Shown: one piece after another, positions 1 through 14,136 of the stretch
How the letters are laid out: each line of letters begins with the position of its first letter
Position numbering within the stretch: the first letter of the stretch is position 1
NCBI GenBank assembly: GCA_963826785.1
Contig: CAWGYD010000001.1
Coordinates: forward strand, 64,001 to 128,000
DNA from: an uncultured delta proteobacterium
GTDB taxonomy: Bacteria > Desulfobacterota > Desulfobacteria > Desulfobacterales > Desulfosalsimonadaceae
DNA: 64,000 bases
Direction: 5' to 3'
Program-made: the position numbers and the translations under genes
The notes under the pieces: generated by a model
The model's database searches: none
What the model was told of the DNA's origin: nothing
What the model saw: the letters and a program-made list of their open reading frames with translations, nothing else

Positions 1-2738
1 TTGCGGGAGGGGGCCAGGGTGCTGCCGGCCGCGCAGGCCGCGGCGCTGGCCTCGGTGATGGATGTCGGGATGTCCTTGGGCCCCTGGAAAATGCCGCAGG
101 CGAATACGCCCGGGCGCGATGTATTCACCGGAGTGAAGGGATGGGTCTTGGCAAAGCGGTAATGGTTCAGATCGACATGGAGCCGGTTGGCCATTTCAAC
201 GGTTTCGGGCGGGACCTGCAGGCCAACGGACAGCACCACCATGTCGAAATCCTCCATCTGCAGCTCGCCGGCTTCATCCACGTACCGCAGCCGCAGGTTG
301 TCGTTTTCGATCACGTCAATGGTGTGAATCCGCGCTTTTTCAAACCGGACGCCGGACTGTTCTTTGGCCCGCAGGTAATATTTTTCATAATCCTTGCCGA
401 AGGTCCGGATGTCCATGTTGAAGATCACCGTGTCCAGACCGTGATCCACGTGCGCCTTGGCGATCATGGCCTCCTTGATGGCATACATGCAGCACACTGA
501 CGAACAGTAGCCGTTTCCGCACCGGTTGGTGTCCCGGGAGCCCACACACTGGAGCCAGGCGATCCGCTTGGGCTCGGTATGGTCCGAGGGCCGCACCAGG
601 TGGCCCATGGTGGGGCCGGAAGCGGACAATATCCGCTCGAACTGGGCGCTGGTCAGCACATTGGCGGCCGACAGGTACTTGTAGGTGTCCTCCAGCACGG
701 CGGGGTCGTAGGTTTCATTTCCGGGGCAGAGAATTACCGATCCGACGGGCAGGTCACGCTCCATCACCGTCTGTTCATGATCGACGGCGCCGGCCAGGCA
801 GGCTTTCACACACTGGTAACATTCGGAGCAGATGCCGCATTTCAGACAGCGATCGGCCTCGGACTTGGCCTCTTCCTCGTTGTACCCATAGGAGACCTCC
901 AGGAAATTGCATTCCCGGGCCTCGGGGTTCAGGCACCGGACCGGCACCCGGTCCTTGTGGGGTTCGCCCAGGGCATCCGGCTTTTCAAAGACCCAGTCCT
1001 TGTCCCGGCCTTCCCTGAGGTCCAGCCCATTGATGTAGCGGTGGATGCTTTCGGCCGCGGCTTTTCCAGAAGACACGGCATCCACCACCGACTTGGGCCC
1101 ATAGAAGGCGTCGCCGCCGGCAAACACCCATTCAAGCGAGGTCTGCAGGGTCTGCGGGTCCGCATCCAGCCCGCCCACCCGGGTCAAGGGGACGTTCTGG
1201 CCTTCAAAGTCGGAAGTGTGGGTCCCCTGTCCGATGGCGATGATCACGGTGTCCCCGAAAAAAGCCTGGCAGGCCGATTCATCGAATTGAGGGGAAAACC
1301 GCCCTTCTTCGTTGAACACGGCGGTGCAGGTCTTGAACTCGATGCCGGAAACCTTTTTGTTGTCGTTGATGAAAAAGGACTTGGGCCCGAACGAGTTGAC
1401 GATGTCGATGTCGCCTTCCAGCGCCTCTTCTATTTCATGTTCCCATGCCGGCATCTCCTCGCGCTTTTCCAGGCAGAGCATGGTCACATTTTCCGCCCCC
1501 TTGCGCTTGGCGGTCAGGGCCACGTCGATGGCCACGTTCCCGCCGCCGATCACCAGCACGTCTTTGCCGATGGAAACGTCTTTGCCCATTGCCGCGTCCC
1601 GGAGGAAATCCACCCCCTGGAGCACGCCCTCGGCATCTTCGTTCTCCACGCCGAGCTTCCGGCCGCTGTGCAGACCGATGGCCATGAAGACGGCGGCATA
1701 GCCGTCCGCCTTGAGGCTGTCGAAGGTGACATCCTGGCCGAAGGTGACCCCCGTCTGGATCTCTACCCCCATCTCCTCGATGGCCCTGATTTCATTTTTC
1801 AGGATGTCCCGGGGGAGCCGGTATTCAGGGATGCCCACGGCCATCATACCGCCGGCCACGGGCAGTTTTTCAAAAATGGTGACCCCGTATCCCCGCCTGG
1901 CCAGGCTATAGGCGGCCGCCAGGCCCGCAGGACCGGACCCGATCACGGCCACCTTTTCGGCGCGTTTTTCCTCGGGCACGGCGGGCATGAATGTTTCGCC
2001 CTGTTCGTTTTCCCAGTCCGCCAGGAAGCGGTGAAGTTCCCGGATAGCCAGCGGCTGATCGTAATCGCCCCGGGTGCAGACCCCTTCGCAGGGATGATGG
2101 CAGACCCGGCCGCAGACGCCGGGGAAGGGGTGCTCTTCCCGGAACAGTTCCACGGCCTCCTTGTATTTTCCCTGGTTGATCAGGGCGATATAGCCCTGGA
2201 TGCTGACGTGTGCGGGGCAGGTGGCCTTGCAGGGGGCGGTCCCGCGCTTGCTGATGGCATAGGCCCCCGGAATGGCCTGGGCGTATTTCTTGTAGGCGGC
2301 TTTCCGGCTGCCCATCCCCTTGTCCTGTTCGCTGGGAACCTCGATGGGGCACACCTTGGCGCACTCGCCGCAGGAGGTGCATTTGGAAAGGTCGATATAA
2401 CGGGGTTCCTGGCGGATATGGGCCTTGAAGTTGCCCGGTTCGCCGTCAAGCGTGAGCAGTTCGGTGTTGGTTAAAAGCTCGATATTCAGATGCCGGCCGA
2501 CCTCGACCAGTTTGGGCGAGATGACTCACATGGCGCAGTCGTTGGTGGGAAAGGTCTTGTCCAGCTGGGACATGATGCCGCCGATGGCGGATGTTTTTTC
2601 CACCAGGTATACATAATATCCGGAATTGGCCAGGTCGATGGCCGACTGCATCCCGGAGATGCCTGCGCCGACCACCATGACGGACCCCACCGGCTGGCTG
2701 CGTTCAGGGGTTTTCCCGGATTCTTTTGCCTGTTCCAT
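1..2738 (-). CDS. HdrA/HdrL-like heterodisulfide-reductase-type flavoprotein with inserted GltD-like NAD(P)H module; probable selenoprotein (in-frame TGA 2526-2528); runs off the window
   Basis: ATG 2738 with [19 protein letters not shown]...[28 protein letters not shown] continues in frame. Later motifs: [20 protein letters not shown]...[52 protein letters not shown]...[27 protein letters not shown]. Confidence 0.9.
2493..2510 (-). promoter_or_regulatory. Candidate bacterial SECIS hairpin of the HdrA/HdrL gene
   Basis: mRNA CUGGUCG-AGGU-CGGCCGG: 7-bp stem (two G-U pairs) with an AGGU loop, starting 16 nt after the UGA. Confidence 0.7.
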
Positions 2739-3209
2739 TCTTATCTCCTTGTGATGTTGCTGCCGTACATATCCATTCAGATCATGCAAGAGGTCACGCA
2801 TAAAGCGAACGCCGTTCATGATGCGGTGCGATCATTTCCTGGTCCGCAGAATAAAATACGCGTGTAAACGAATTCACCGCACGCCCGGATCGAAACATAT
2901 TTTTTATTTTAAAGTGCCAGATATGTCAATGATAATAATATAATATTCATCGGGTTTGTTTTGAGAAATGTCTCAAAAAACGAAAATAAGAAGAGATCAA
3001 TCGTCTTCAATCGATTTTCATAAATATATGCATGTTGTTTTTGAACCGGGACATAATAGAGGCCTGATCTATTTCTTGACAAGAATATATCACTTTGTGG
3101 CAGAATGGTCCGAGTTCTTCATGCATTTGGAAAGTGCTTATATCCTGAGTTGAATATGAAATATAACATCCGTTTCTACTTTGGCCAGATTCTATGGGCA
3201 TTTTAGTGT

Positions 3210-3239
3210 TTGACAGGGAATCGGGATTTTTTTTATAGT
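3210..3239 (+). promoter_or_regulatory. Sigma70-type promoter for the first surface-protein gene
   Basis: TTGACA (3210-3215), 18-nt spacer, TATAGT (3234-3239). Confidence 0.55.
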
Positions 3240-3297
3240 GCCAAAAAAGTCCCATTTTCTTTATCATGAGCACATACATCAAGCAGGAGAATGTCCC

Positions 3298-5763
3298 ATG
3301 AGCCAGAAAAGATTGAACAGATTCAAGCCATGTCTGATGGCCGGTGTCTTCACGGCCCTCTTTTTAATGTGCATTTCAGCGCCGCAGTCCGTCTATGGCT
3401 GAGGATCCAGCAATCTGACCGTGACTGTCAGTCCAGCAAACACCGGCCACGTCAAAGTCAATGGAACGGTTTATACGGGTTCATGCGGCTATAGCTCTGG
3501 TACCAAGCTAACCCTGGAGGGGGTTGCTTCCGAAAATTACAAGTTCGATCGGTGGGGCGGCGCCTTGAGCGGCAGCACCAATCCGACAACGCTTACTATG
3601 GATACCAGTAAAAGCGTTACTGCCTACTTCCGATTGAAGACCGAATCGGTCTCTCTGTCCGGTGCGAAAAACCTGATGGATACCCAAAAAGACCTGGTGG
3701 TTATCGATGTGAGGCCGGCCGCCGAATACAGCACCGCTCACATGTTGTGCGCCAGAAATTACATCTGGAATGCGGGGGCTAAAAATTTCACCACACCCCT
3801 GAATACGCTTAATTCCTTAAAATCTCAAAATATCCTGGTTTATGACCGCGATGGCACCAACAGCGACGATGCCGCCGACTATCTGGCCAACCAGGGTTTC
3901 AACTCGGTTTATTACATGACCAACGGTCTGGATGACTGGATGGCCGCGGGATACGAGACCTTTGCCACGGCCGCGGACAGCAGCATCTGCACCAGCCTTG
4001 CGCCCATGGCCTATGCCGGCACGGATGTGACGGTCAATGAAAATACCATGGTGACGTTGAGCGGTTCAGGGGCGGACCCGGACGGGGGTTCGGTACTTTT
4101 ATCTATTGGACCCAGGTGGAAGGGACCACCGTCGCCTTATCGAATCCCGCATCGGCAAAACCCACTTTTAGGGCCCCGGTACCATCCGGGGGAGATGACG
4201 AGTTGATTTTTCATCTCACGGTCAACCGATGACGAGGGCCAGAAAGATACGGACAGTGTCACCGTGAAGGTCTCCTGGATAAATGATCCGCCCACGGCGG
4301 TGGCAACGGCGGACAAAACCAATCCCCAGCCCGGGGACACGGTGACCCTTAACGGATTGGGATCTTCCGACCCGGAAAACGGGACCCTGACCTATAGTTG
4401 GGTGGCTACATCCGGTACTTTGATGATCAATCTATCAAACCCGAATTCAGCCAAACCTTCTTTTGTAGTGCCTCCGGGCACGTCTGCCGGCCGGTGGGTG
4501 GAATTTACGCTGACGGTAACCGACAACGGTGGCCCAAAGAGCGACATACAAAGTCAAAATCACGGTGGCCGGCAGTTCGAACCAGCCGCCGTCGGCCTGC
4601 GCGGGGGACAACAAGACGGTGGCCGAAGGAACCATGGTTCAGCTGGACGGCTCCTGCTCCACGGACCCGGATGACGGAATAAAGCAGTATACTTGGGCGC
4701 AGACCGGCGGGCCGTCGGTGTCGCTGTCTAACATTCATGCGGTTAAACCCACCTTTACCGCGCCGCAGGTAACCCAGAACACCGCCCTTAATTTCAAACT
4801 GACGGTTCAGGATAACGGCGGCCTGACCCACAGCAAACGGTTACGGTAACGGTCACGGACAGCGGCGGCACCTCCGGTACTCCCGCCCCCCCGAAAAATG
4901 TTTCCGCAACGGACAACACGCTTGCAGGCAGGGTTCGCATCGCCTGGGCAGCCTCATCAGGGGCTCAGTCATATGATGTCTACCGAGCAGACATGCCGGC
5001 CTGGACGGGGGCGGTGCTCAGCCGAATTGCTTCGTCGGTAACCGGGACCTCCTATGACGACATCACGGCAAAGTCCGGCAGCCTTTATTATTATTGGGTC
5101 AGGGCCCGAAATGCCAAGGGGATGAGTAAATTCAGCGCTTTTGACACCGGATTTTTTGGGGCCACCGGCAAATCGCCCGCCCGGCCGACTGAAGTCGAGG
5201 CCAGTGAAAACAGTAGTGCCAACAAGGTGACCATCACCTGGAAGGGGTCTGCCGAAGCCTTGGTATACGAGGTCTACAGAGCGGATATCCCGGTGTATCT
5301 GGGTGGAAAAATAAAAAAAATCGCCACCGTCAAGACGCTCACTTATGATGATGCCACCGCGGCCGCGGGCAATCGGTATTATTATTGGATTACCGCCCGC
5401 AATTCCTGGGGGATCAGTCATTACAGCCTTTTTGATACGGGATATTGTTGCGGGCCGGCCCAGTCGCCCCCCGATTCGCCTGCAGGCGTGACGGCCAGCA
5501 AGGGAACGGTAGCGGGCAAAGTCCATATTTCATGGAATGCCTCCGCCAAAACGACCGTTTATGAAATCTGGCGAGCCAACAAACCGGGCAGTCAGGGAGG
5601 CAGGCCGGTTCGCATCGGTAAGGTGGACAGCAATACCTTTTCATTCGATGATAATTTATTGTCCTGTAACGTAAATTATTTTTATTGGGTAACTGCCCGA
5701 AACCCATGGGGCGTGAGTCGTTATAGCAAGTATGCTACCGGGTACTGTGGTTCGCTGCCCTGA
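3298..5763 (+). CDS. Secreted multidomain protein A: signal peptide, in-frame TGA (putative Sec35), InlB-B-repeat-like domain, Asp-type rhodanese domain, 3 PKD/K319-like Ig repeats, 3 Fn3-like repeats; 4 apparent frameshifts
   Basis: AGGAG 8 nt before ATG 3298. MSQKRLNRFKPCLMAGVFTALFLMCISAPQSVYG-TGA(3400)-GSSNLTVTVSPANTG...YKFDRWGGALSGSTNP. Rhodanese VIDVR...LVYD...GLDDW; AG.D.TV.E...V.L.G repeats; YYYWV.ARN repeats. Frame changes near 4100, 4224, 4540 and 4835. Confidence 0.75.
3415..3431 (+). promoter_or_regulatory. Candidate SECIS hairpin, protein A
   Basis: CUGAC-CGUGACU-GUCAG beginning 13 nt after the UGA at 3400-3402. Confidence 0.6.
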
Positions 5764-5838
5764 TTAACCTTTGGTTAGGGCGCAGACAACCAGAAAATAA
5801 TTAATAATTGAATACAAACCGATCACTTTAGAGAGACA

Positions 5839-5876
5839 AATTCCCTGCGGGCACATGCACGCGGGGAATTTTTTTT
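5839..5876 (+). terminator. Rho-independent terminator
   Basis: AATTCCCTGCG...CGCGGGGAATT stem followed by a T run, downstream of the stop at 5763. Confidence 0.75.
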
Positions 5877-6202
5877 GCCGCATCAAAGGAAATCGGCGAA
5901 ACTTTCTTTCTGGCTTAAAAATTGCATCTTTATACCGCCTATAGTGGATGCGCTAAATCCCATTCATCGCAATTGAGCTGTCGGCTTCATTCAAGCAATT
6001 TGCGGGGGAATCGGGTTTTTTTTATTGACAAGTGCCTGCTACAGTGTGGCAGTATCACAAACTGATATGGTTGCAAATTTTGACAAGACCGTATTCAAAA
6101 GAGGACACTTTTATCATTGGCGCGGTAATCTGTTTGTTCTAACGGGATGAGCAGTTATCGCATTTATTGGTAATCTTATGTACCAGGAGACAGTAATTGA
6201 AG

Positions 6203-9200
6203 ATGTTTGCAAATTCCGCTTCACCTTTCCGTTTCGCTTTCAAGGCATGCTGCCTGATCATGTTCACAGTGACGGCCCTGACCCTCTCTATTCCTGCACC
6301 CGCAGGCGCCGGCTGAGGCGGCCTGGCGCTGACCGTGGATGTCAGCCCCGCAAGGGCCGGTAAAATCAAGATCACTTACATAGACAGCAACCTGGTCACA
6401 AAGGTCTTAATCCCGACCAGTTATCCATCCGAAACCTACACTTGTATCAATTATGGCAGCACGGTCATACTGGAGGCGACGCCCTCGTCAGGGTACCGCT
6501 TCGATCACTGGGGCGGATCCGTTACCGGCAGCACAAATCCGGTGAAATTCGTGCTCAAGGAAGCCAGAGAGATCACGGCCTATTTTACCGGAAGCGCAAC
6601 CACTTCAATTACGGCGAACGCCGGGCCCGACCAGAACGTCAGCGAGAACCAGCAGGTGACCCTCAATGGAACAGGGTCGACCGGAACCATTTCTCGCTAC
6701 AGCTGGACCCAGACAAGTGGTCCGACGGTGGCGCTTTCAGGTTCTACATCCAGCCGCCCCACCTTTACCGCACCCTATGTGCAGGAGGGCGGAGCAACCC
6801 TCACCTTTCGCCTGACGGTGAGCAACAACCTGGGCCAGACAGATACCGACAGCGTCAACGTGCATGTGGCCTGGCAGGATCAGCTGACCGCATCCGCCGG
6901 ACCCGACCAGAGCGTCAGCGGGGGGCAGCAGGTGACCCTCAATGGAACCGGATCGACCGGAACCATTGCCCGCTACAGCTGGACCCAGACAAGCGGCCCG
7001 ACCGTTGTTCTTTCGGGTTCCACATCCAGCCGCCCCACCTTTACCGCACCTTATGTGCAGGCAGCCGGGGCAACGCTTACTTTTCTGCTGACGGTGAGCG
7101 ACAATCTGGGCCATACAGACTCGGACAGTGTCAATGTGCGTGTCGCTTCGCAGAATCTGAACCTGGCGGCAGCGGCCGGACCCGATCAGTCCGTCGAATC
7201 CGGTGCAACCGTTGTCCTGGATGGATCAAACTCCTCGCCCCAGAGCGACATCGTCTCATATCAATGGGTGATGATCGACAACAACTTAAACCTTTCCGGC
7301 ATCGATCTGACCAGCAAGTGGGGAGAGGGAATGGTGTCTTTTCTGGCACCCGAGCAGAGCGGTTGGATTGAATTTGAACTGACTGTCAGCGGTGTGGACG
7401 GCAGCAGCGACAGCGACACGGTTGTGGTCACGATCACTCAAACCAGCGGCGGCAGCGGGCTCGCAGCGAATGCCGGATCGGACCAGGCCGCCCTCATCGG
7501 GACCATGGTCATGCTCGATGGATCCGGTTCCCAGGGGGACAACCTGCAATATCAGTGGCGTTAGATCCCCGAAGCCACGGTCACCTTGTCCGGGGGAAAT
7601 GAATGGACGGGGATTTCCCTGCAGAAAACCCCGACTTTTACCGCCCCTGAAACCGGGCAGCCGCAGCAAACGCTGACCTTTGAGCTGAAGGTGAAAGATA
7701 CGGTCAGCGGACAGACGAGCATCGATACCGTGGATATCCTGATCAACAGCCAGGCTTACGTGGACAGCAATGCATCGCCGACCGCAGATGCGGGTCCGGA
7801 TCTTCAAGTCGCCCCCGGTGCGGTGGTAAAGCTTGATGCAAGCGGTTCCACAGATCCCGAAAACAGGATCATCTCCTATCTCTGGACGGTCCAATCCGGT
7901 TCGGCTGCTATCCGGCTGTCGGATGACAAGGCAATCGACCCGGTCTTTACGGCGCCGGCTGCATCCGGTTCGGCTGAATTCAAGTTGACCGTCATCGATG
8001 ATGCCGGAAAAAGCGATACGGACATGGTGACGGTCGACTGGGCCAATCAACCGCCCTCCGCGAACGCGGGAACGGATCAGACAGTTACCGAAGGAAGCAT
8101 GGTGACCATGGACGGTTCGGGTTCCTCGGATATCGATGACGGCATCGTCTCCTATGAATGGGTCCAGACAGGGGGCCTTTCCGTCGCGCTCACGGGTAAA
8201 GACACCGCCCAACCCACTTTCAGTGCGCCGATGATCACCACCGGGCAAACGGCGGCATTGTCCTTCCGCCTGACGGTTAAAGACCGCCTCGGACAGTCGG
8301 ATACGGACCAGGTGATTGTCACCGTCACCCGGGACGGTATGCCGCCAATCGCAGATGCGGGTCCGGACCGCACGGTCAACGAAGGCGATGTCATTGAGCT
8401 TGACGGGACGGAATCCATGGATCCGGACGGAAATATCGTCAGCTATCAATGGAAACAGGTTCACGGCCCGGTGGCCGGGATTTCAGACGAAACATCCGCA
8501 AAAGCCTCCTTTATCGCCAGGCGGTCAGGGTGGACCAGCTACCGCTGACCTTTGATTTGACGGTAGTGGACAACGAGGGACTGAGTTCTTCAGACCGGGT
8601 GATCATCACCATTGTCAATGTGGGGGAATTGCCCGTGGCGAATGCCGGGGAGGACCAGGCGGTTTACGAGCGTAAAACCGTCACCCTGGACGCATCCCGG
8701 TCAAAAGACAGGGACGGCCTCATCGAGCGGTATAAATGGAGCCAGATCACCGGTCCCACCGTCGTCTTTTCGGATTCCGAGGCCATGCAGCCCACCTTTG
8801 ACGCTCCCATCATCGGGGAAAATCCGGTGGATCTCGAATTCCAGCTCATGGTCGAGGACAACGACGGACTCAAAGGATTCGACCGGGTGAAGATCACCGT
8901 GAACCCGACCACCCAGGCCCCTGTGGCCGATGCAGGCCCGGATCAGACCGTGAAAGAAGGGGAAACAGTGGTCCTCGACGGGTCGGGATCTTCGGATCCG
9001 GATGACGGGATTATCAGTTATAAATGGACCCAGGCGGCCGGTTCGGTCACGGTTGAACTTTCCGACGAAACCGCCCCGCAGCCGACATTTGAGGCCCCGA
9101 AAATTAGCGGCGAAGACGTTGCGCTGAGCTTCAAGCTGGTGGCAGAGGATTTCAGCGGTCAGCAGGGGGTGGATACGTGTGGTCACCGTCACCGATAAAT

Positions 9201-9250
9201 CCGATGGCGGAGGCGGCGGCGGATGCTTCATCTCGACTTTGATGGAGTAA
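6203..9250 (+). CDS. Secreted multidomain protein B: signal peptide, in-frame TGA (putative Sec), InlB-B-repeat-like domain, about 9 PKD/K319-like Ig repeats, C-terminal GGGGGG-CFI tail; internal TAG and 2 apparent frameshifts
   Basis: AGGAG 6185-6189; start is ATG 6203 or TTG 6197. MFANSASPFRFAFKACCLIMFTVTALTLSIPAPAGAG-TGA(6314)-GGLALTVDVSPARAG...YRFDHWGGSVTGSTNP. Repeated ANAGPDQ.V...V.LDGS units. In-frame TAG 7562-7564; frame changes near 8518 and 9178; ends DKSDGGGGGGCFISTLME-TAA. Confidence 0.75.
6328..6346 (+). promoter_or_regulatory. Candidate SECIS hairpin, protein B
   Basis: GCUGAC-CGUGGAU-GUCAGC; the CUGAC arm starts 13 nt after the UGA at 6314-6316, the same spacing as in protein A. 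Confidence 0.6.
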
Positions 9251-9290
9251 ATGAAGTTTAGCCGCTTGGTCTTTTATTCATGATGATCTG

Positions 9291-9333
9291 AGCGTCCCTG
9301 CCGGGAAGAACTTCCGGCAGGGACGCTTTTTTT
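9291..9333 (+). terminator. Rho-independent terminator between convergent genes
   Basis: AGCGTCCCTGCCGG...CCGGCAGGGACGCT followed by a T run. Confidence 0.8.
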
Positions 9334-10447
9334 ATCGGCTATAAAATCTGGCGAATCCCGGGGTCATGGATTCCGCTATGGCGCCGTCGTCCTGTTCATA
9401 CAGGATGAGCGCCTCGATCCCCAGTTTCTGAGCGATGGCAAGGCCACCGGCGCGGCCGGCAACCGTGATGGCGGTGGCTGCGCCGTCCAGAAGGGCATTG
9501 GAAATCGCCGGGTCAATGGTCAGGGTGGTGACCCCCAGGATTTTTTCCGGGACCGGTTTGCCGGTTTCGGGGCTGAAGATGTGGTAGAATGCGTATCCCT
9601 GAATCATGATGGGCTGCTCATAATTGCCGCTGGTGGAAACCCTGAGCACGCCGGTGTGGCTGACGATGCCATAGACGGCATCGGGGTCCATGGGGTGCTG
9701 AATCCCGATGCGCCAGGGTTTGCCCTGGTTGTCCCCGAAAGCGGCCACTTCGCCGCCCAGCTGGATGATTCCGGCCGCGGCCCCGTTTTTTACCACCACT
9801 TGCCGCACCCGGTCCACCGCATATCCCTTGGCGATCCCGCCGAAATCAAACATGATGTTCGCATTGTCCAGATCGACATGGCCGTTCGACAGATGAACGT
9901 GCGAAAAACCCGTATCCTGCAGGGTGCTTCGGATTTGGCGCTCGGAAGGCACCTGCTGTTTTTTTTCGGCCTCCTGCCAGAGGCGCTTGATGGGCATCAT
10001 GGTGGGATCGAACAGCCCCCCGCTTTCCCGCCACAATCGATCCGACAGCGACAGCAGGGCGTACAGATCGCTTGAAATTTTGAAGCTGCCGGTTTCATGC
10101 GCGGCATTGAGTTTTGCCAGTTCAGAAGCGGGGTCAAACGGATTGACTATTTTGCCGATCCGGGAAAATTCCAGCCAGGCCTTCCCGGTCAACGCCTTGG
10201 CCTTCTGCGGTGAGGCGCCTGGGAGATAAAGGCGCACCCGGGCGGGAATTTGGTAGTAGATCGCCTGACGGCTTTCCCACCATCCGGGAGAGACTTCCTG
10301 CGGATTGATGTCCACATCGCTTTGCTTCGGCGCATTCGCCGTGCTTTTCGGCCCTGCGGGAGACCAACGGGTATGGACCCCCCAGGAGATGACGACGGCC
10401 GTCAATCCAATGAAAAAAAACAGCGGTATCCAGCTTGCCTTCTGCAA
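9332..10447 (-). CDS. apbE: FAD:protein FMN transferase (ApbE family)
   Basis: SELAKLN, SGGLFDPT, FDFGGIAKGYAVD, STSGNYE, YHIFSPETG; N-terminal TM helix; TTG start with GGAGG. Confidence 0.9.
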   Translation of the reverse strand: MQKASWIPLFFFIGLTAVVISWGVHTRWSPAGPKSTANAPKQSDVDINPQEVSPGWWESRQAIYYQIPARVRLYLPGASPQKAKALTGKAWLEFSRIGKIVNPFDPASELAKLNAAHETGSFKISSDLYALLSLSDRLWRESGGLFDPTMMPIKRLWQEAEKKQQVPSERQIRSTLQDTGFSHVHLSNGHVDLDNANIMFDFGGIAKGYAVDRVRQVVVKNGAAAGIIQLGGEVAAFGDNQGKPWRIGIQHPMDPDAVYGIVSHTGVLRVSTSGNYEQPIMIQGYAFYHIFSPETGKPVPEKILGVTTLTIDPAISNALLDGAATAITVAGRAGGLAIAQKLGIEALILYEQDDGAIAESMTPGFARFYSR

Positions 10448-10477
10448 TGGTCCTCCAATCCAGGTGCCCGGATGTAC

Positions 10478-11827
10478 TTACACGCCGGTAATCCGGATTA
10501 ATATATCATAATACTTGAGCACGCGCTCGACGAACCGGACGGCTTCTGTTCCTCTGGCATAACCGTAGCGGGTGTTTTCGTGATATTGGGGATAGACCAG
10601 AAGCGGCAGAATCTGCTCCATGGAACGCCATTTGCGCGGATTCAGACCTTTTTCCCGGGCAATGGACTGGGCGTCGCGGATGTGGCCGTACCCCACGTTA
10701 TAGCTGCCCAGCGCAAATTTGATCCGCTCATTCTCATCGATCCGGGGAAAACGATCATAAAGGGATTTAAGGTATTTGACCCCGCCCCGGATGCTCTGGA
10801 AGGGATCGAGGCGGTTTTCGATCTGCATTTCCACGGCGGTGGGAAGGGTCAGCTGCATGAGGCCGCAGACACCGGTATAACTGACGGCCAGGGGATCGAA
10901 CTCGGATTCCTGGTAGATGACCGCTGCGATCAGGCGCCAGTCCAGATCGTACATATCGGCAGTCTCGATGATAGCGGGCTTATATTCGGGAAGCCGGGTA
11001 TCCAGGCGGATGTGAAATTTTTTGATGTTGACATAGTCGAACTGGTCACGACCGGCGTAATACCGGTTGTAAATATCATCATAGACCCCGTTTTTTTTTA
11101 TGGTTTTAAAGAACCGGTTGATTTTTCGACGAAGGGCGTCGTCTTCCTTGCGCACCGCCCAGGCGATTTCCTGTTCACCGCTGATGGTGCAGGCGATTTT
11201 GATGTCCGGATAATACCGGCGGTTTAAACGGACGATGTTGGAGTCTGCTGCGGTGATATCGATTTCATGGTCCTGGATGCGCCGCAAAAATTCCTCGGTG
11301 GGGACATTATCGTAGAGGACCAGTTTAAGGTCGATGCCTTCGTCGATTAACTTCAGGAGCCGTTCATGGTAAGAGGTGTGTTTGCGGATGTGGATGGTCT
11401 TGCCGTTTAGATCCGAAATCTTCGTAATATCGGAATTTCCTTTTCGAACGACAATGTGCTGGCGTACGGACATATACGGAATGGAAAAAGAGACCCGATC
11501 CATCCGGTTCGGGGTACGGGTGAGGCTCGATGCGATGAGGTCGCCTTCATGATTGACGAGTGCATCCATGATTTTCCCCCATCCCGGTGTGACCACCTCG
11601 AGATCGACCGCAAGGTCATCCGCAAACTCCCGGGCCAGGTCGTATTCGAACCCCATGGGGGCGCTCCGGTAGAGATAGTATCCGTGGGAGCTGTTGTCGG
11701 TAATGATGGTGAGCTTTTTATGCCGCTTGATCCGGCGCAGGCTGTCATCGGTGAAATGACAGAATACGGCCGCCAGTATGCACGCGGCCAGCATCGCAAG
11801 CTTGATTTTCAGATGTTTGTGTTTCAA
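10478..11827 (-). CDS. mltF: Membrane-bound lytic murein transglycosylase F
   Basis: Solute-binding domain (PMGFEYDLAREFA) followed by an SLT domain (LIAAVIYQESEF, GLMQLT, SYNVGYGHIRDA, YGYARGTE). Confidence 0.9.
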   Translation of the reverse strand: MKHKHLKIKLAMLAACILAAVFCHFTDDSLRRIKRHKKLTIITDNSSHGYYLYRSAPMGFEYDLAREFADDLAVDLEVVTPGWGKIMDALVNHEGDLIASSLTRTPNRMDRVSFSIPYMSVRQHIVVRKGNSDITKISDLNGKTIHIRKHTSYHERLLKLIDEGIDLKLVLYDNVPTEEFLRRIQDHEIDITAADSNIVRLNRRYYPDIKIACTISGEQEIAWAVRKEDDALRRKINRFFKTIKKNGVYDDIYNRYYAGRDQFDYVNIKKFHIRLDTRLPEYKPAIIETADMYDLDWRLIAAVIYQESEFDPLAVSYTGVCGLMQLTLPTAVEMQIENRLDPFQSIRGGVKYLKSLYDRFPRIDENERIKFALGSYNVGYGHIRDAQSIAREKGLNPRKWRSMEQILPLLVYPQYHENTRYGYARGTEAVRFVERVLKYYDILIRITGV

Positions 11828-12219
11828 ATAAAAAAAGCCGGATTTTTTTGATTCCGTTTACATTCAAATCATCATCGTGCCGGCAAGAAAAGGGTGGCTC
11901 GAAATGGGGCGGCCCATGTCGGGGCACGAATACCTTTGACTGCGAACTGGAATGAGAAACTAAGCGAAAATAGACGGATATGATGTCAGAAGTCAAGAGC
12001 GACGTTCAGGCACAAGTTGGTGTCGGTCATCCCCCGCCGGTATATCAGCCGGGGCCAAAAGTATCGGTCCGGGCAAAAGGCCGATCCACGGTTTTTTGGC
12101 CTTGACAATCATCAGGATTAATACTGTAACTCAACTTTTCATCTTTATATTAGCGGCCCCGTATTGCATAATGCCGGAAAAGAAGAGCGCCATTCCATTT
12201 TGATTTAAAGGATTTTAAT

Positions 12220-12741
12220 ATGATACCGATGATTTCCGTAATCGGTTATTCCGATTCCGGCAAGACCACGCTGATCGAAAAGCTGGTGCCCGCCCTCAAA
12301 AAGATGGGCTTTCGGGTGGGGGCCATCAAGCACTCCGTTCACCAGTCCCGGTTTGATGTGAAGGGAAAGGACAGCTGGCGTTTCTATGAGGCCGGTGCAG
12401 ATGCGGTGGTGGTTTCTTCAGCTGATAATATTGCGGTTTTTAAACGAAAAGAGGAAAACAGCGGCGAGAAATATTCTGAACTTCCTGAATTGATGACGTA
12501 TTTCAATGACATGGATATCGTCATCGCGGAAGGCTACAAGAAGGGAAATCATCCTAAAATCGAGGTATACCGCTCGGGCGACAATGCCCCCATCTGTGAA
12601 AAGGATGGCCGGGTATTCGTACTGGTATCCGATTTGCCCGTAAAGACCGACATCCCCGTGTATGGCGCCGATGAAGTCGAAAAACTGGCGGAACTGATCA
12701 AAGACAGATTTCTCAACAATCGCGGTTTGCTCGCTGAGTGA
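12220..12741 (+). CDS. mobB: Molybdopterin-guanine dinucleotide biosynthesis protein B
   Basis: GYSDSGKTTLIEKL, AIKHSVH, GKDSWRF, EGYK, PKIEV. Confidence 0.9.
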   Translation: MIPMISVIGYSDSGKTTLIEKLVPALKKMGFRVGAIKHSVHQSRFDVKGKDSWRFYEAGADAVVVSSADNIAVFKRKEENSGEKYSELPELMTYFNDMDIVIAEGYKKGNHPKIEVYRSGDNAPICEKDGRVFVLVSDLPVKTDIPVYGADEVEKLAELIKDRFLNNRGLLAE

Positions 12742-12760
12742 AAAAACGTTTACGACGGCC

Positions 12761-12813
12761 AAGCGATTTTGAAACCGGAAAGAGCAGTGCGTTTTCCGGT
12801 TTCAAAATCGCTT
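12761..12813. terminator. Perfect 21-bp inverted repeat between convergent mobB and metK (likely terminator)
   Basis: AAGCGATTTTGAAACCGGAAA ... TTTCCGGTTTCAAAATCGCTT. Confidence 0.6.
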
Positions 12814-12966
12814 ATCTGGCCAAAGAATCATTCAATGATATCGGTTGAGGCAATCAGAATCAAATAGCAGATATTCGACGCCGGCATCAATTTGCCAGGG
12901 GGTTCCCGCGTTTCCCGGCACGTATTTTACAGATTCCATTTTGCCGGCATCGGATCATAACCTGAT

Positions 12967-14136
12967 TTAAAGTCCGGCCAGTGCCCGGATTTCATCTGCC
13001 CTGTTGGTCTTCTCCCAGGTAAAATCGGGGTCTTTCCGGCCGAAGTGACCGTATGCCGACGTCTTGCGGTAGATGGGGCGCAAAAGGTCCAGGTATTCGA
13101 TAATGGCCGCGGGCCGCAGGTCGAAAATCTCCCGGACGATTTCCCTGGCCTTGTATTCGGGGATATTGCCGGTGCCCAGAAAATCCACCAGGATGGAGAC
13201 CGGTTCGGCCACGCCGATGGCATAGGCCACCTGGACCTCGCATTTTCTGCCCAGCCCGGCGGCCACCAGGTTCTTGGCGATGTGCCGGCCCATGTAGGAT
13301 GCGCTCCGGTCCACCTTGGAGGGGTCTTTTCCCGAAAAGCAGCCGCCGCCATGGCTTCCCTGTCCGCCGTAGGTATCCACGATGATCTTCCGTCCGGTCA
13401 GCCCGCAGTCGCCCATGGGGCCGCCGATGACAAACCGTCCGGTGGGGTTGATGAAGTAGCGGGTGTCGCCGTCCACCATATCTTTGGGAATGGTTTTTTT
13501 GATCACCTCTTCAATAACGGCTTCCTTGACCTCGTCATAGGTGGCATCGGCCTTGTGCTGGGTGGAGACCACCACCGTGTCCACCCGCTTCGGAATGCCG
13601 TCGATGTACTCGATGGTGACCTGTGACTTGCCGTCGGGCCTCAGGAAATCCACCGAACCGTTTTTGCGGACCGTGGCCAGGCGCTTGGTCAGCTTGTGGG
13701 CAAAGGAGATGGGCATGGGCATGAGCTCCGGGGTCTCATCCGAGGCAAAGCCGAACATCAGCCCCTGGTCGCCGGCCCCCTGCTCCTTGAAGAGCCCCTG
13801 GCCCGTATCCACGCCCTGGGCGATATCCGGGGACTGCTGGCCGATGCTGGTAAGCACCGAGCAGGTCTGCCAGTCGAATCCCATCCGGGAAGAATTATAG
13901 CCGATATCCCGGATGGTATTTCGCACCACCTGGGGGATGTCCACGTAGCATTCTGTGGTGATTTCGCCGGAAACGAAGGCCAGTCCGGTGGTCACCAGGG
14001 TTTCGCATGCGACCCGGGCATGTTTGTCCTGTTCGATAATGGCATCCAGAACCGAATCGGAAATGGCGTCGGCAACCTTGTCCGGATGCCCTTCGGTTAC
14101 GGATTCAGAGGTAAAAAGGACGCTGTTCTGTGTCAT
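12967..14136 (-). CDS. metK: S-adenosylmethionine synthetase
   Basis: [50 protein letters not shown]. Confidence 0.98.

Follow-up and report, generated by a model that had tools for sequence, protein, structure and literature searches.

The window analysed here, a stretch of 64,000 nucleotides (nt) from an uncultured delta proteobacterium of the Desulfosalsimonadaceae (assembly GCA_963826785.1, contig CAWGYD010000001.1, positions 64,001 to 128,000), carries two genes, A and B, each with an in-frame UGA directly behind a predicted signal peptide and the same short hairpin 12 nt further on. This hairpin is very likely an ordinary bacterial selenocysteine insertion sequence (SECIS) lying within the gene, and its behaviour across homologues makes it highly probable that the UGA is recoded as selenocysteine (Sec, U) through it. 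The hairpin is of known type, and the novelty lies in the exported, Sec-tipped protein family to which both genes belong. In the fullest form of this reading, held at somewhat short of even confidence, genes A and B would represent an unpublished cell-surface selenoprotein family of anaerobic, probably Desulfobacterales, bacteria, in which a portable module (signal peptide, UGA, SECIS-encoding strand and InlB-B-like domain) is mounted on PKD, fn3 or rhodanese stalks and presents a redox-active selenium-sulfur (Se-S) tip for contact with sulfur, metals or partner cells.

The UGA-hairpin sites and selection on the RNA

The two sites, together with a comparator from outside the family, are the following:

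3400..3402 (+): in-frame UGA of gene A (codon 35), with TGA at the same place in orthologues; putative Sec at about mature position 1
3415..3431 (+): SECIS-like hairpin A, with a 5-pair stem and the 7-nt loop CGUGACU; encodes L-T-V-T-V-S
6314..6316 (+): in-frame UGA of gene B, with TGA at the same place in the L011 orthologue; putative Sec at about mature position 2
6328..6346 (+): SECIS-like hairpin B, with a 6-pair stem and the 7-nt loop CGUGGAU; encodes L-T-V-D-V-S
2493..2528 (-): comparator, the HdrA Sec-UGA (2528-2526) and its SECIS with an AGGU loop; stem-loop seen behind the UGA

At site A the TGA (3400-3402) is followed by a 12-nt spacer and CTGAC CGTGACT GTCAG (3415-3431), and at site B the TGA (6314-6316) is followed by a spacer of the same length and CTGAC CGTGGAT GTCAG (6329-6345), extended by a closing G-C pair (6328/6346). 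The first-pass annotation, made from the letters of the window, had described a hairpin exactly 12 nt past each UGA with a stem of 5-6 base pairs (bp) and a 7-nt loop containing a G, and this is what stands at both sites; the AGGU loop that it had placed behind the HdrA UGA is likewise present, and the loops of sites A and B differ from it yet fit the bacterial SECIS (bSECIS) consensus. The pattern UGA-N12-CTGAC-N7-GTCAG has two matches in the window and none in 100 shuffles, and in the whole 4.43-Mb genome it occurs at only two places, which are sites A and B. Both UGAs are in frame, directly behind the predicted signal peptide and ahead of a PF18998 domain. An Rfam scan of positions 2400-6600 gave three weak, unrelated matches, none of them at the hairpins. 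Since the N-terminal domains of genes A and B are paralogous (37% identity over the first 92 aligned positions), the two sites are not independent and cannot separate selection on the RNA from shared descent, and the evidence for selection of the hairpin comes from homologue controls, not from the two copies alone.

Homologous sites were collected with a DNA pattern that allowed other stem letters and a UGA spacing of 9-24 nt in 401 genomes of the order. This gave 29 distinct hairpins in 15 genomes (31 rows, two of which are repeat listings of the same hairpin), against one match for a reversed control pattern in the same search. Each of these hairpins is preceded by a signal peptide and an in-frame TGA, at a spacing of 12, 15 or 18 nt from the latter, and all use the same stem letters. 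Two sites on a metagenome contig, a further one in G201 and another in G520, which belongs to a different order, bring the full set to 33 sites, spread over 17 genomes and that contig. A looser first pattern, which matched 191 of 301 genomes and yielded mostly noise, was set aside, and its 22 matches in G276 were dropped, nearly all of them being one repeated element. In that genome a 37-nt stretch, probably part of an insertion sequence and unrelated to the family, is present in about 20 identical copies on many contigs (L077-L102).

The shared 17 nt might be explained as the by-product of a conserved β-strand written in common codons, in which case the hairpin would have no role of its own. 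CTG, ACC and GTG are indeed preferred in this genome (0.55, 0.65 and 0.45), neither 61-nt segment folds better than its shuffles, and covariation is scarce. This explanation is nevertheless very improbable. A codon-blind search of 301 genomes for the peptide L-T-V-x-V-S-P-x-x-x-G returned 25 matches, with the hairpin codons in all 18 of those preceded by a UGA and in none of the other seven (four true homologous domains and three apparent chance frames); the same peptide without a UGA never uses these codons. Over all fetched loci, a complete 5-pair stem is found in 32/32 UGA-preceded domains as against 0/45 related domains lacking the UGA, and when the comparison is limited to the peptide L-T-V-x-V-S the counts are 31/31 and 0/6. 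The base before the stem, a wobble G that pairs with the C closing the Ser codon, is kept in 31 of the 33 sites across 12 codons, whereas the Pro codon right after the stem varies freely and is spread across all four forms. Codon usage gives the five hairpin codons a probability of 0.016 in this genome and of about 4e-6 in the AT-rich genome G089, where they are kept all the same.

Forms with cysteine (Cys) at the U position are informative in the same respect. They comprise two genomic paralogues, which adjoin Sec genes in G067 and G174, and eight database entries, two of which are the same proteins. The two paralogues nest within the UGA clade (support 98/94) as one Sec-to-Cys event; the hairpin has been lost in one of them and survives in the other as a shifted, weaker 5-pair remnant. 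L-T-V-x-V-S is kept in none of the eight full-length Cys forms from the database, so that the Cys forms relax the peptide itself. Selection at the RNA level for recoding, as proposed in the first-pass annotation, is thus supported by the homologue controls, and the outcome that it had named as speaking against this proposal, Cys homologues keeping the same codons equally well, is not the one observed.

The inverted repeat could instead be a DNA site for a dimeric regulator, as it forms a near-perfect DNA palindrome with almost no sequence change. Such a role is extremely improbable: the TGA spacing is always a multiple of three, a variant with a U-G wobble keeps the RNA pairing and breaks the DNA palindrome, and the hairpin decays where the UGA becomes a Cys codon. 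The near-invariance of the sequence and the scarcity of covariation are explained by the double use of these 18 nt as first β-strand and as hairpin: the fixed Leu-Thr and Val-Ser leave a single stem pair free to vary without changing the peptide, and thin covariation is to be expected. In the 31 aligned sites 98.9% of the alignment cells are paired, and one compensatory change and one wobble preserve the pairing. Both come from the metagenome contig FWPV01002023.1, an orthologous locus with both genes, each with a TGA and the hairpin 12 nt on, in which one hairpin carries the compensatory swap and the other the U-G wobble.

The decoded residue and points against recoding

Regarding the residue inserted, the accessible part of the 2026 selenoprotein inventory PMC13188914 describes bSECIS elements by a loop of 3-9 nt, an upper stem of 4-16 bp and an energy of at most -7.5 kcal/mol, with a G within the first two loop positions and frequently a G or U after it, and a UGA-to-loop distance of 16-37 nt. 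The family hairpins, with their 7-nt loop and 5-6 pairs, lie within the bounds for loop and stem; a G occupies loop position 2 in 33/33 sites, and the loop starts 17, 20 or 23 nt from the UGA in all of them. The energy, calculated from the UGA to 12 nt behind the stem (our own choice of window, which differs from that of the published predictor), is -7.5 kcal/mol or lower in 32 of the 33 sites, site B reaching -14.5. The in-frame TGA is conserved across homologues in the 33 sites, with homology on both sides of it.

The decoding machinery is present in the carriers. selB scores above the cut-off in all 14 other carrier genomes tested, a set that leaves out two carriers and the metagenome contig, and it is single-copy in 11 of them; a tRNA-Sec was found in 5/5 carrier genomes scanned, four of which have only one tRNA-Sec-like gene. 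The source genome itself encodes a tRNA-Sec(UCA), selA and about 18 recognisable selenoprotein genes with hairpins at similar distances, whose families we presume from sequence motifs. Read-through as Sec is inferred from sequence evidence.

A Cys-inserting alternative deserves consideration, given that a selC*/SelB* system that recodes UGA as Cys has been described in Desulfobacterales (PMC5389517, in its accessible part) and is therefore known from this very group. Under this alternative, a selC* tRNA-Cys(UCA) would read the UGA and the hairpin would be a signal for SelB*. It has some support within the family's range: in G214 a second selB is closely preceded by an additional UCA tRNA, second selB-like genes also occur in G067 and G201, and Cys would satisfy equally well the parity rule described below. 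However, 11 of the 14 carriers have a single selB, including G134, G174, G221, G394 and G280, which are 97-99% complete, only one tRNA-Sec-like gene is present in four of five genomes, and the second UCA tRNA and the second selB-like gene are found in 1/5 and 3/14, respectively. Being absent from most carriers tested, selC*/SelB* cannot be the general decoder, and Cys insertion by this route is improbable. In the G214 locus (G214:C108:97974-99977; L053, L063), the selC*-like UCA tRNA lies directly upstream of the divergent second selB, with no cysS-like frame just behind.

The UGA could also be the true stop of a leader peptide, translation restarting from a near-cognate codon within the hairpin or close to it; alternatively, every member could be a pseudogene. 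In favour of such a view, gene callers begin these proteins at a GTG or ATG just downstream (in the database, each of the eight close homologues of gene A has its start immediately past the U position and no signal peptide), and genes A and B are broken further on. Against it, a restarted product would have no signal peptide despite its extracellular domains and sorting tails, the frame of the Cys paralogues runs through this position uninterrupted, every stop seen there is an in-frame TGA (each of the 23 rows with a stop, from the 150 listed out of 242 profile matches, has a single TGA), and one member has GGG in place of GTG. Long intact frames in relatives, such as the 773 and 776 amino acids (aa) open past the UGA in the gene A orthologues, speak against pseudogenes. 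Restart or general decay is consequently a poor explanation, with very little probability, and recoding as Sec remains the preferred one.

A number of observations weigh against this preferred explanation. Some concern the folding of the two sites: the folding z-scores of the 61-nt windows relative to shuffles are +1.02 for site A and -0.80 for site B, neither better than shuffled sequence, and hairpin A is absent from the minimum-energy fold of its 61-nt window, though it appears in that of the 48-nt window. Site A lacks the closing pair, its energy (-6.4 kcal/mol) is the single exception to the -7.5 kcal/mol limit, and its minimal hairpin (-4.3 kcal/mol) is among the weakest of the family; the stem probability is below 0.5 in two of the 33 sites. 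The lower stems that had been suggested, GGA/UCC in A and GCGG/CCGC in B, find no support, as only the 6-pair upper stem appears in the consensus fold computed from the 23 sites whose spacer is 12 nt. Covariation is thin: the proposed check on it brought the compensatory change and the wobble described above, and only one pair changed on both sides, a level reached in 15 of 500 shuffles. Other points concern sampling. The sites are related by descent, so that probabilities across them are not to be multiplied; 29 of the 33 were found through the DNA pattern itself, and the loci fetched by protein query alone have the full stem in 12/12 sites; among the 45 and 77 control rows are tandem repeats that come from a small number of genomes, as well as some that are mis-anchored. 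In G174 the shifted 5-pair hairpin of the Cys paralogue still folds, and its domain has an unpaired Cys.

The remaining points lie in the source genome. Neither selB nor selD was found in its 88%-complete assembly, and selA is split by a frameshift (G000:C3:45278-46644; L009, L010). This assembly also misses genes that stand next to selB in a relative, purM- and tsaD-like core genes among them, a pattern that fits a gap. Finally, genes A and B have about seven breaks in 5.5 kb, compared with six frameshifted among 148 compared frames in 163 kb elsewhere (17 further frames "with stop", mostly opposite-strand shadow frames, are excluded from this count). All breaks are well downstream of the hairpins and several fall within short base runs; decay is the less probable source of this broken state, as compared with poor polishing, and the family-level conclusion is independent of the condition of the two genes.

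Genes A and B and their relatives

The other features of the two genes, all on the plus strand, are listed here:

3210..3239 (+): sigma-70-like promoter match upstream of gene A, with 11/12 consensus positions; a consensus match only
3298..3399 (+): gene A start codon and predicted signal peptide of 34 aa, type I-like as judged by eye
3403..3636 (+): gene A divergent InlB B-repeat domain (Flg_new_2, PF18998), a domain match with a confident structure model
3484..3486 (+): sole Cys of the gene A N-terminal domain (residue 29 from U), the putative Se-S partner
3664..3945 (+): gene A rhodanese-like domain, with Asp at the position of the active-site Cys of a relative in G063
3946..5763 (+): remainder of gene A, built of PKD-like and fn3 repeats, with about four frame changes in this assembly near 4100-4225, 4530-4550 and 4830-4840
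6197..6313 (+): gene B start (TTG 6197 or ATG 6203) and predicted signal peptide, type I-like in appearance
6317..6589 (+): gene B divergent InlB B-repeat domain (domain match), with a single Cys at 6443-6445
6590..9250 (+): remainder of gene B, made up of K319L-like PKD repeats and, at the end, a Gly-rich tail of CFI-box-like type; interrupted in this assembly by an in-frame TAG (7562-7564) and by frame changes near 8510 and 9190
9290..9328 (+): computed terminator-like hairpin behind gene B

The last part of gene A consists of fn3 repeats. In its rhodanese-like domain, Asp replaces the active-site Cys in close homologues too, and the G063 member keeps the Cys motif; the domain is flanked by two other conserved Cys. 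The tail of gene B scores 14.9 bits with the CFI-box model NF041763, just under the 15.9 cut-off, and CFI-box-like tails are also present in many, not all, relatives. The two genes sit between hdrA and a group formed by apbE, an MltF-like transglycosylase gene, mobB and metK (window positions 9332-14136), and relatives (L011, L044 and L046) keep one to two Sec genes in the same neighbourhood.

At larger scale, the exact motif has a patchy distribution that lies mostly within the order. A sample of 401 genomes from the phylum contributed G520 as its sole carrier from outside the order, one chance match being dropped, and viral contigs gave no motif match. A single-protein query of genome and metagenome collections brought only one useful metagenome locus and two weak genome loci, and a profile search of 1.84 billion representatives was dominated by multi-repeat proteins and returned nothing on the Cys forms. 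PF18998 matches all 18 N-terminal domains tested, and three members consist of only the signal peptide, the Sec domain, a linker and the CFI tail, with a minimal member of 117 aa. G174 and G067 have five Sec members each (L076, L080, L084, L088, L123, L127 and L129), several of which carry, instead of PKD repeats, an unnamed C-terminal domain ending in V-V-G-F-Q-L-N-G-S.

Further candidate selenoprotein genes were met in the course of the analysis. A MerB-like gene of the source genome (G000:C6:272934 and 272739, minus strand) has two in-frame UGAs each followed by a hairpin and is a candidate double selenoprotein. In-frame UGAs with coding potential on both sides occur at G000:C4:88680 (-), C4:367407 (-), C4:114451 (+) and C3:276950 (+), in genes that we take, from sequence motifs, to be UshA-like, rhodanese-like, DUF1573-like and OsmC-like. 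L022 (G187:C85) encodes a secreted candidate whose heavy-metal-associated-like domain reads G-C-G-U-G and precedes a rhodanese domain. Fe-S oxidoreductase (CCG-domain) genes with an E-U-G-H motif are found at L044:2188-2970 (+) and, in three copies, in the source genome (G000:C1:835210, C4:351391 and C5:140032), two of which have near-identical hairpins with a 3-nt loop.

The predicted exported Sec domain, its likely working and its significance

The Cys content of the N-terminal domain gives an indication of the role of Sec. The Cys count is odd in 32/32 UGA domains versus 10/77 other repeats, which suggests a Se-S pair, and the pairing of Sec with the spare Cys is probable on this ground. 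The putative partner Cys lies at residue 2, 29-44, 60, 68-70 or 72-89 from U, and can adjoin it. Structure models in which U is read as Cys are confident (pLDDT 93.7 and 96.5), those of both main classes having an ordered N-terminus (pLDDT 90 and 93 over the first ten residues), and among solved structures the model fold resembles, weakly, CnaB-type domains (E 0.02-0.04) and the InlB B-repeat (E 0.42). A lipoprotein with a lipidated U was considered and rejected: judged by eye against the consensus, there is no [LVI][ASTVI][GAS]C lipobox, and the sites are of A-x-A type behind a polar stretch, one of them with Asn at -1.

In the mechanism proposed, SelB with Sec-tRNA would bind the hairpin loop and Sec would be inserted at the UGA behind the signal peptide, the 18 nt of the hairpin also encoding the first β-strand of the domain, L-T-V-x-V-S. 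The protein would then be exported and cleaved at the A-x-A site, by which Sec would land at mature position 1 or 2, and Sec would be bonded to the one spare Cys of the first domain. A stalk of PKD repeats may thereby bear at its tip a selenenylsulfide that is redox-active or self-protecting; cleavage site, Se-S bond and surface display are all predictions. A redox-active or self-protecting bond is favoured, at roughly even confidence, over a fixed structural staple, because the partner Cys occurs at five places and three members are reduced to Sec domain, linker and CFI tail.

Among known elements, the closest are the bacterial in-gene SECIS of the fdhF/FdhA type, represented in this genome by HdrA, FdhA and MvhD, which likewise place a stem-loop just 3' of an in-frame UGA. 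The likeness extends to the 7-nt loop with G at position 2 followed by U, to its location 17-23 nt from the UGA and to the canonical SelB and tRNA-Sec of the carriers. In contrast to these elements, the family hairpin is near-invariant (loop C-G-U-G-N-N-Y) and has no conserved lower stem, and compared with most other selenoprotein genes of this genome, whose loops have 3-5 nt, its loop is longer, the first and last loop bases usually being unpaired. selC*/SelB* (the accessible part of PMC5389517) also recodes UGA in this group and is present in at least one carrier genome, but is absent from most carriers tested. On the protein side, SaoB, SaoX, ExtKL, the GSU2204 family and the FCYXU TonB-dependent receptor (Table 1 of PMC13188914, as far as accessible) are likewise exported, have one Sec, are truncated by gene callers and have Cys homologues; here, however, Sec would stand at the mature N-terminus of an otherwise structural repeat domain and there is no fixed CxxU or UxxC. 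The rhodanese-like selenoproteins of forms 1-5 in the same table share their domain with gene A, although in the present family Sec lies outside the rhodanese domain, the active site of gene A has Asp, and most members have no rhodanese domain. Ordinary PF18998 or K319L-like PKD surface proteins with a CFI-box tail (NF041763) have the same domains as the family, but their PF18998 repeats lack both the UGA and the hairpin, and the number of Cys in them is mostly even. The 119 entries of Table 1 in the accessible part of PMC13188914 include no PF18998 or PKD family, none of the NCBIfam selenoprotein models matches the N-terminal domain in 18 members, and literature searches, which mostly did not reach subscription papers, found no description of the family.

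The family would add an unusual type of selenoprotein, exported, non-enzymatic in fold and with Sec at the mature N-terminus, whose members gene callers truncate at the UGA and list with no signal peptide. The family also constitutes a natural experiment on the bacterial SECIS, in which 33 Sec genes share one minimal 6-pair hairpin at three spacings, and in this way supplies a short recognition element for SelB in this group that lends itself to testing. On the switch from Sec to Cys, the hairpin and the peptide that it encodes decay, the RNA signal thus constraining the protein sequence. If the reading is true, a UGA placed behind the signal peptide would tie surface display to selenium supply.

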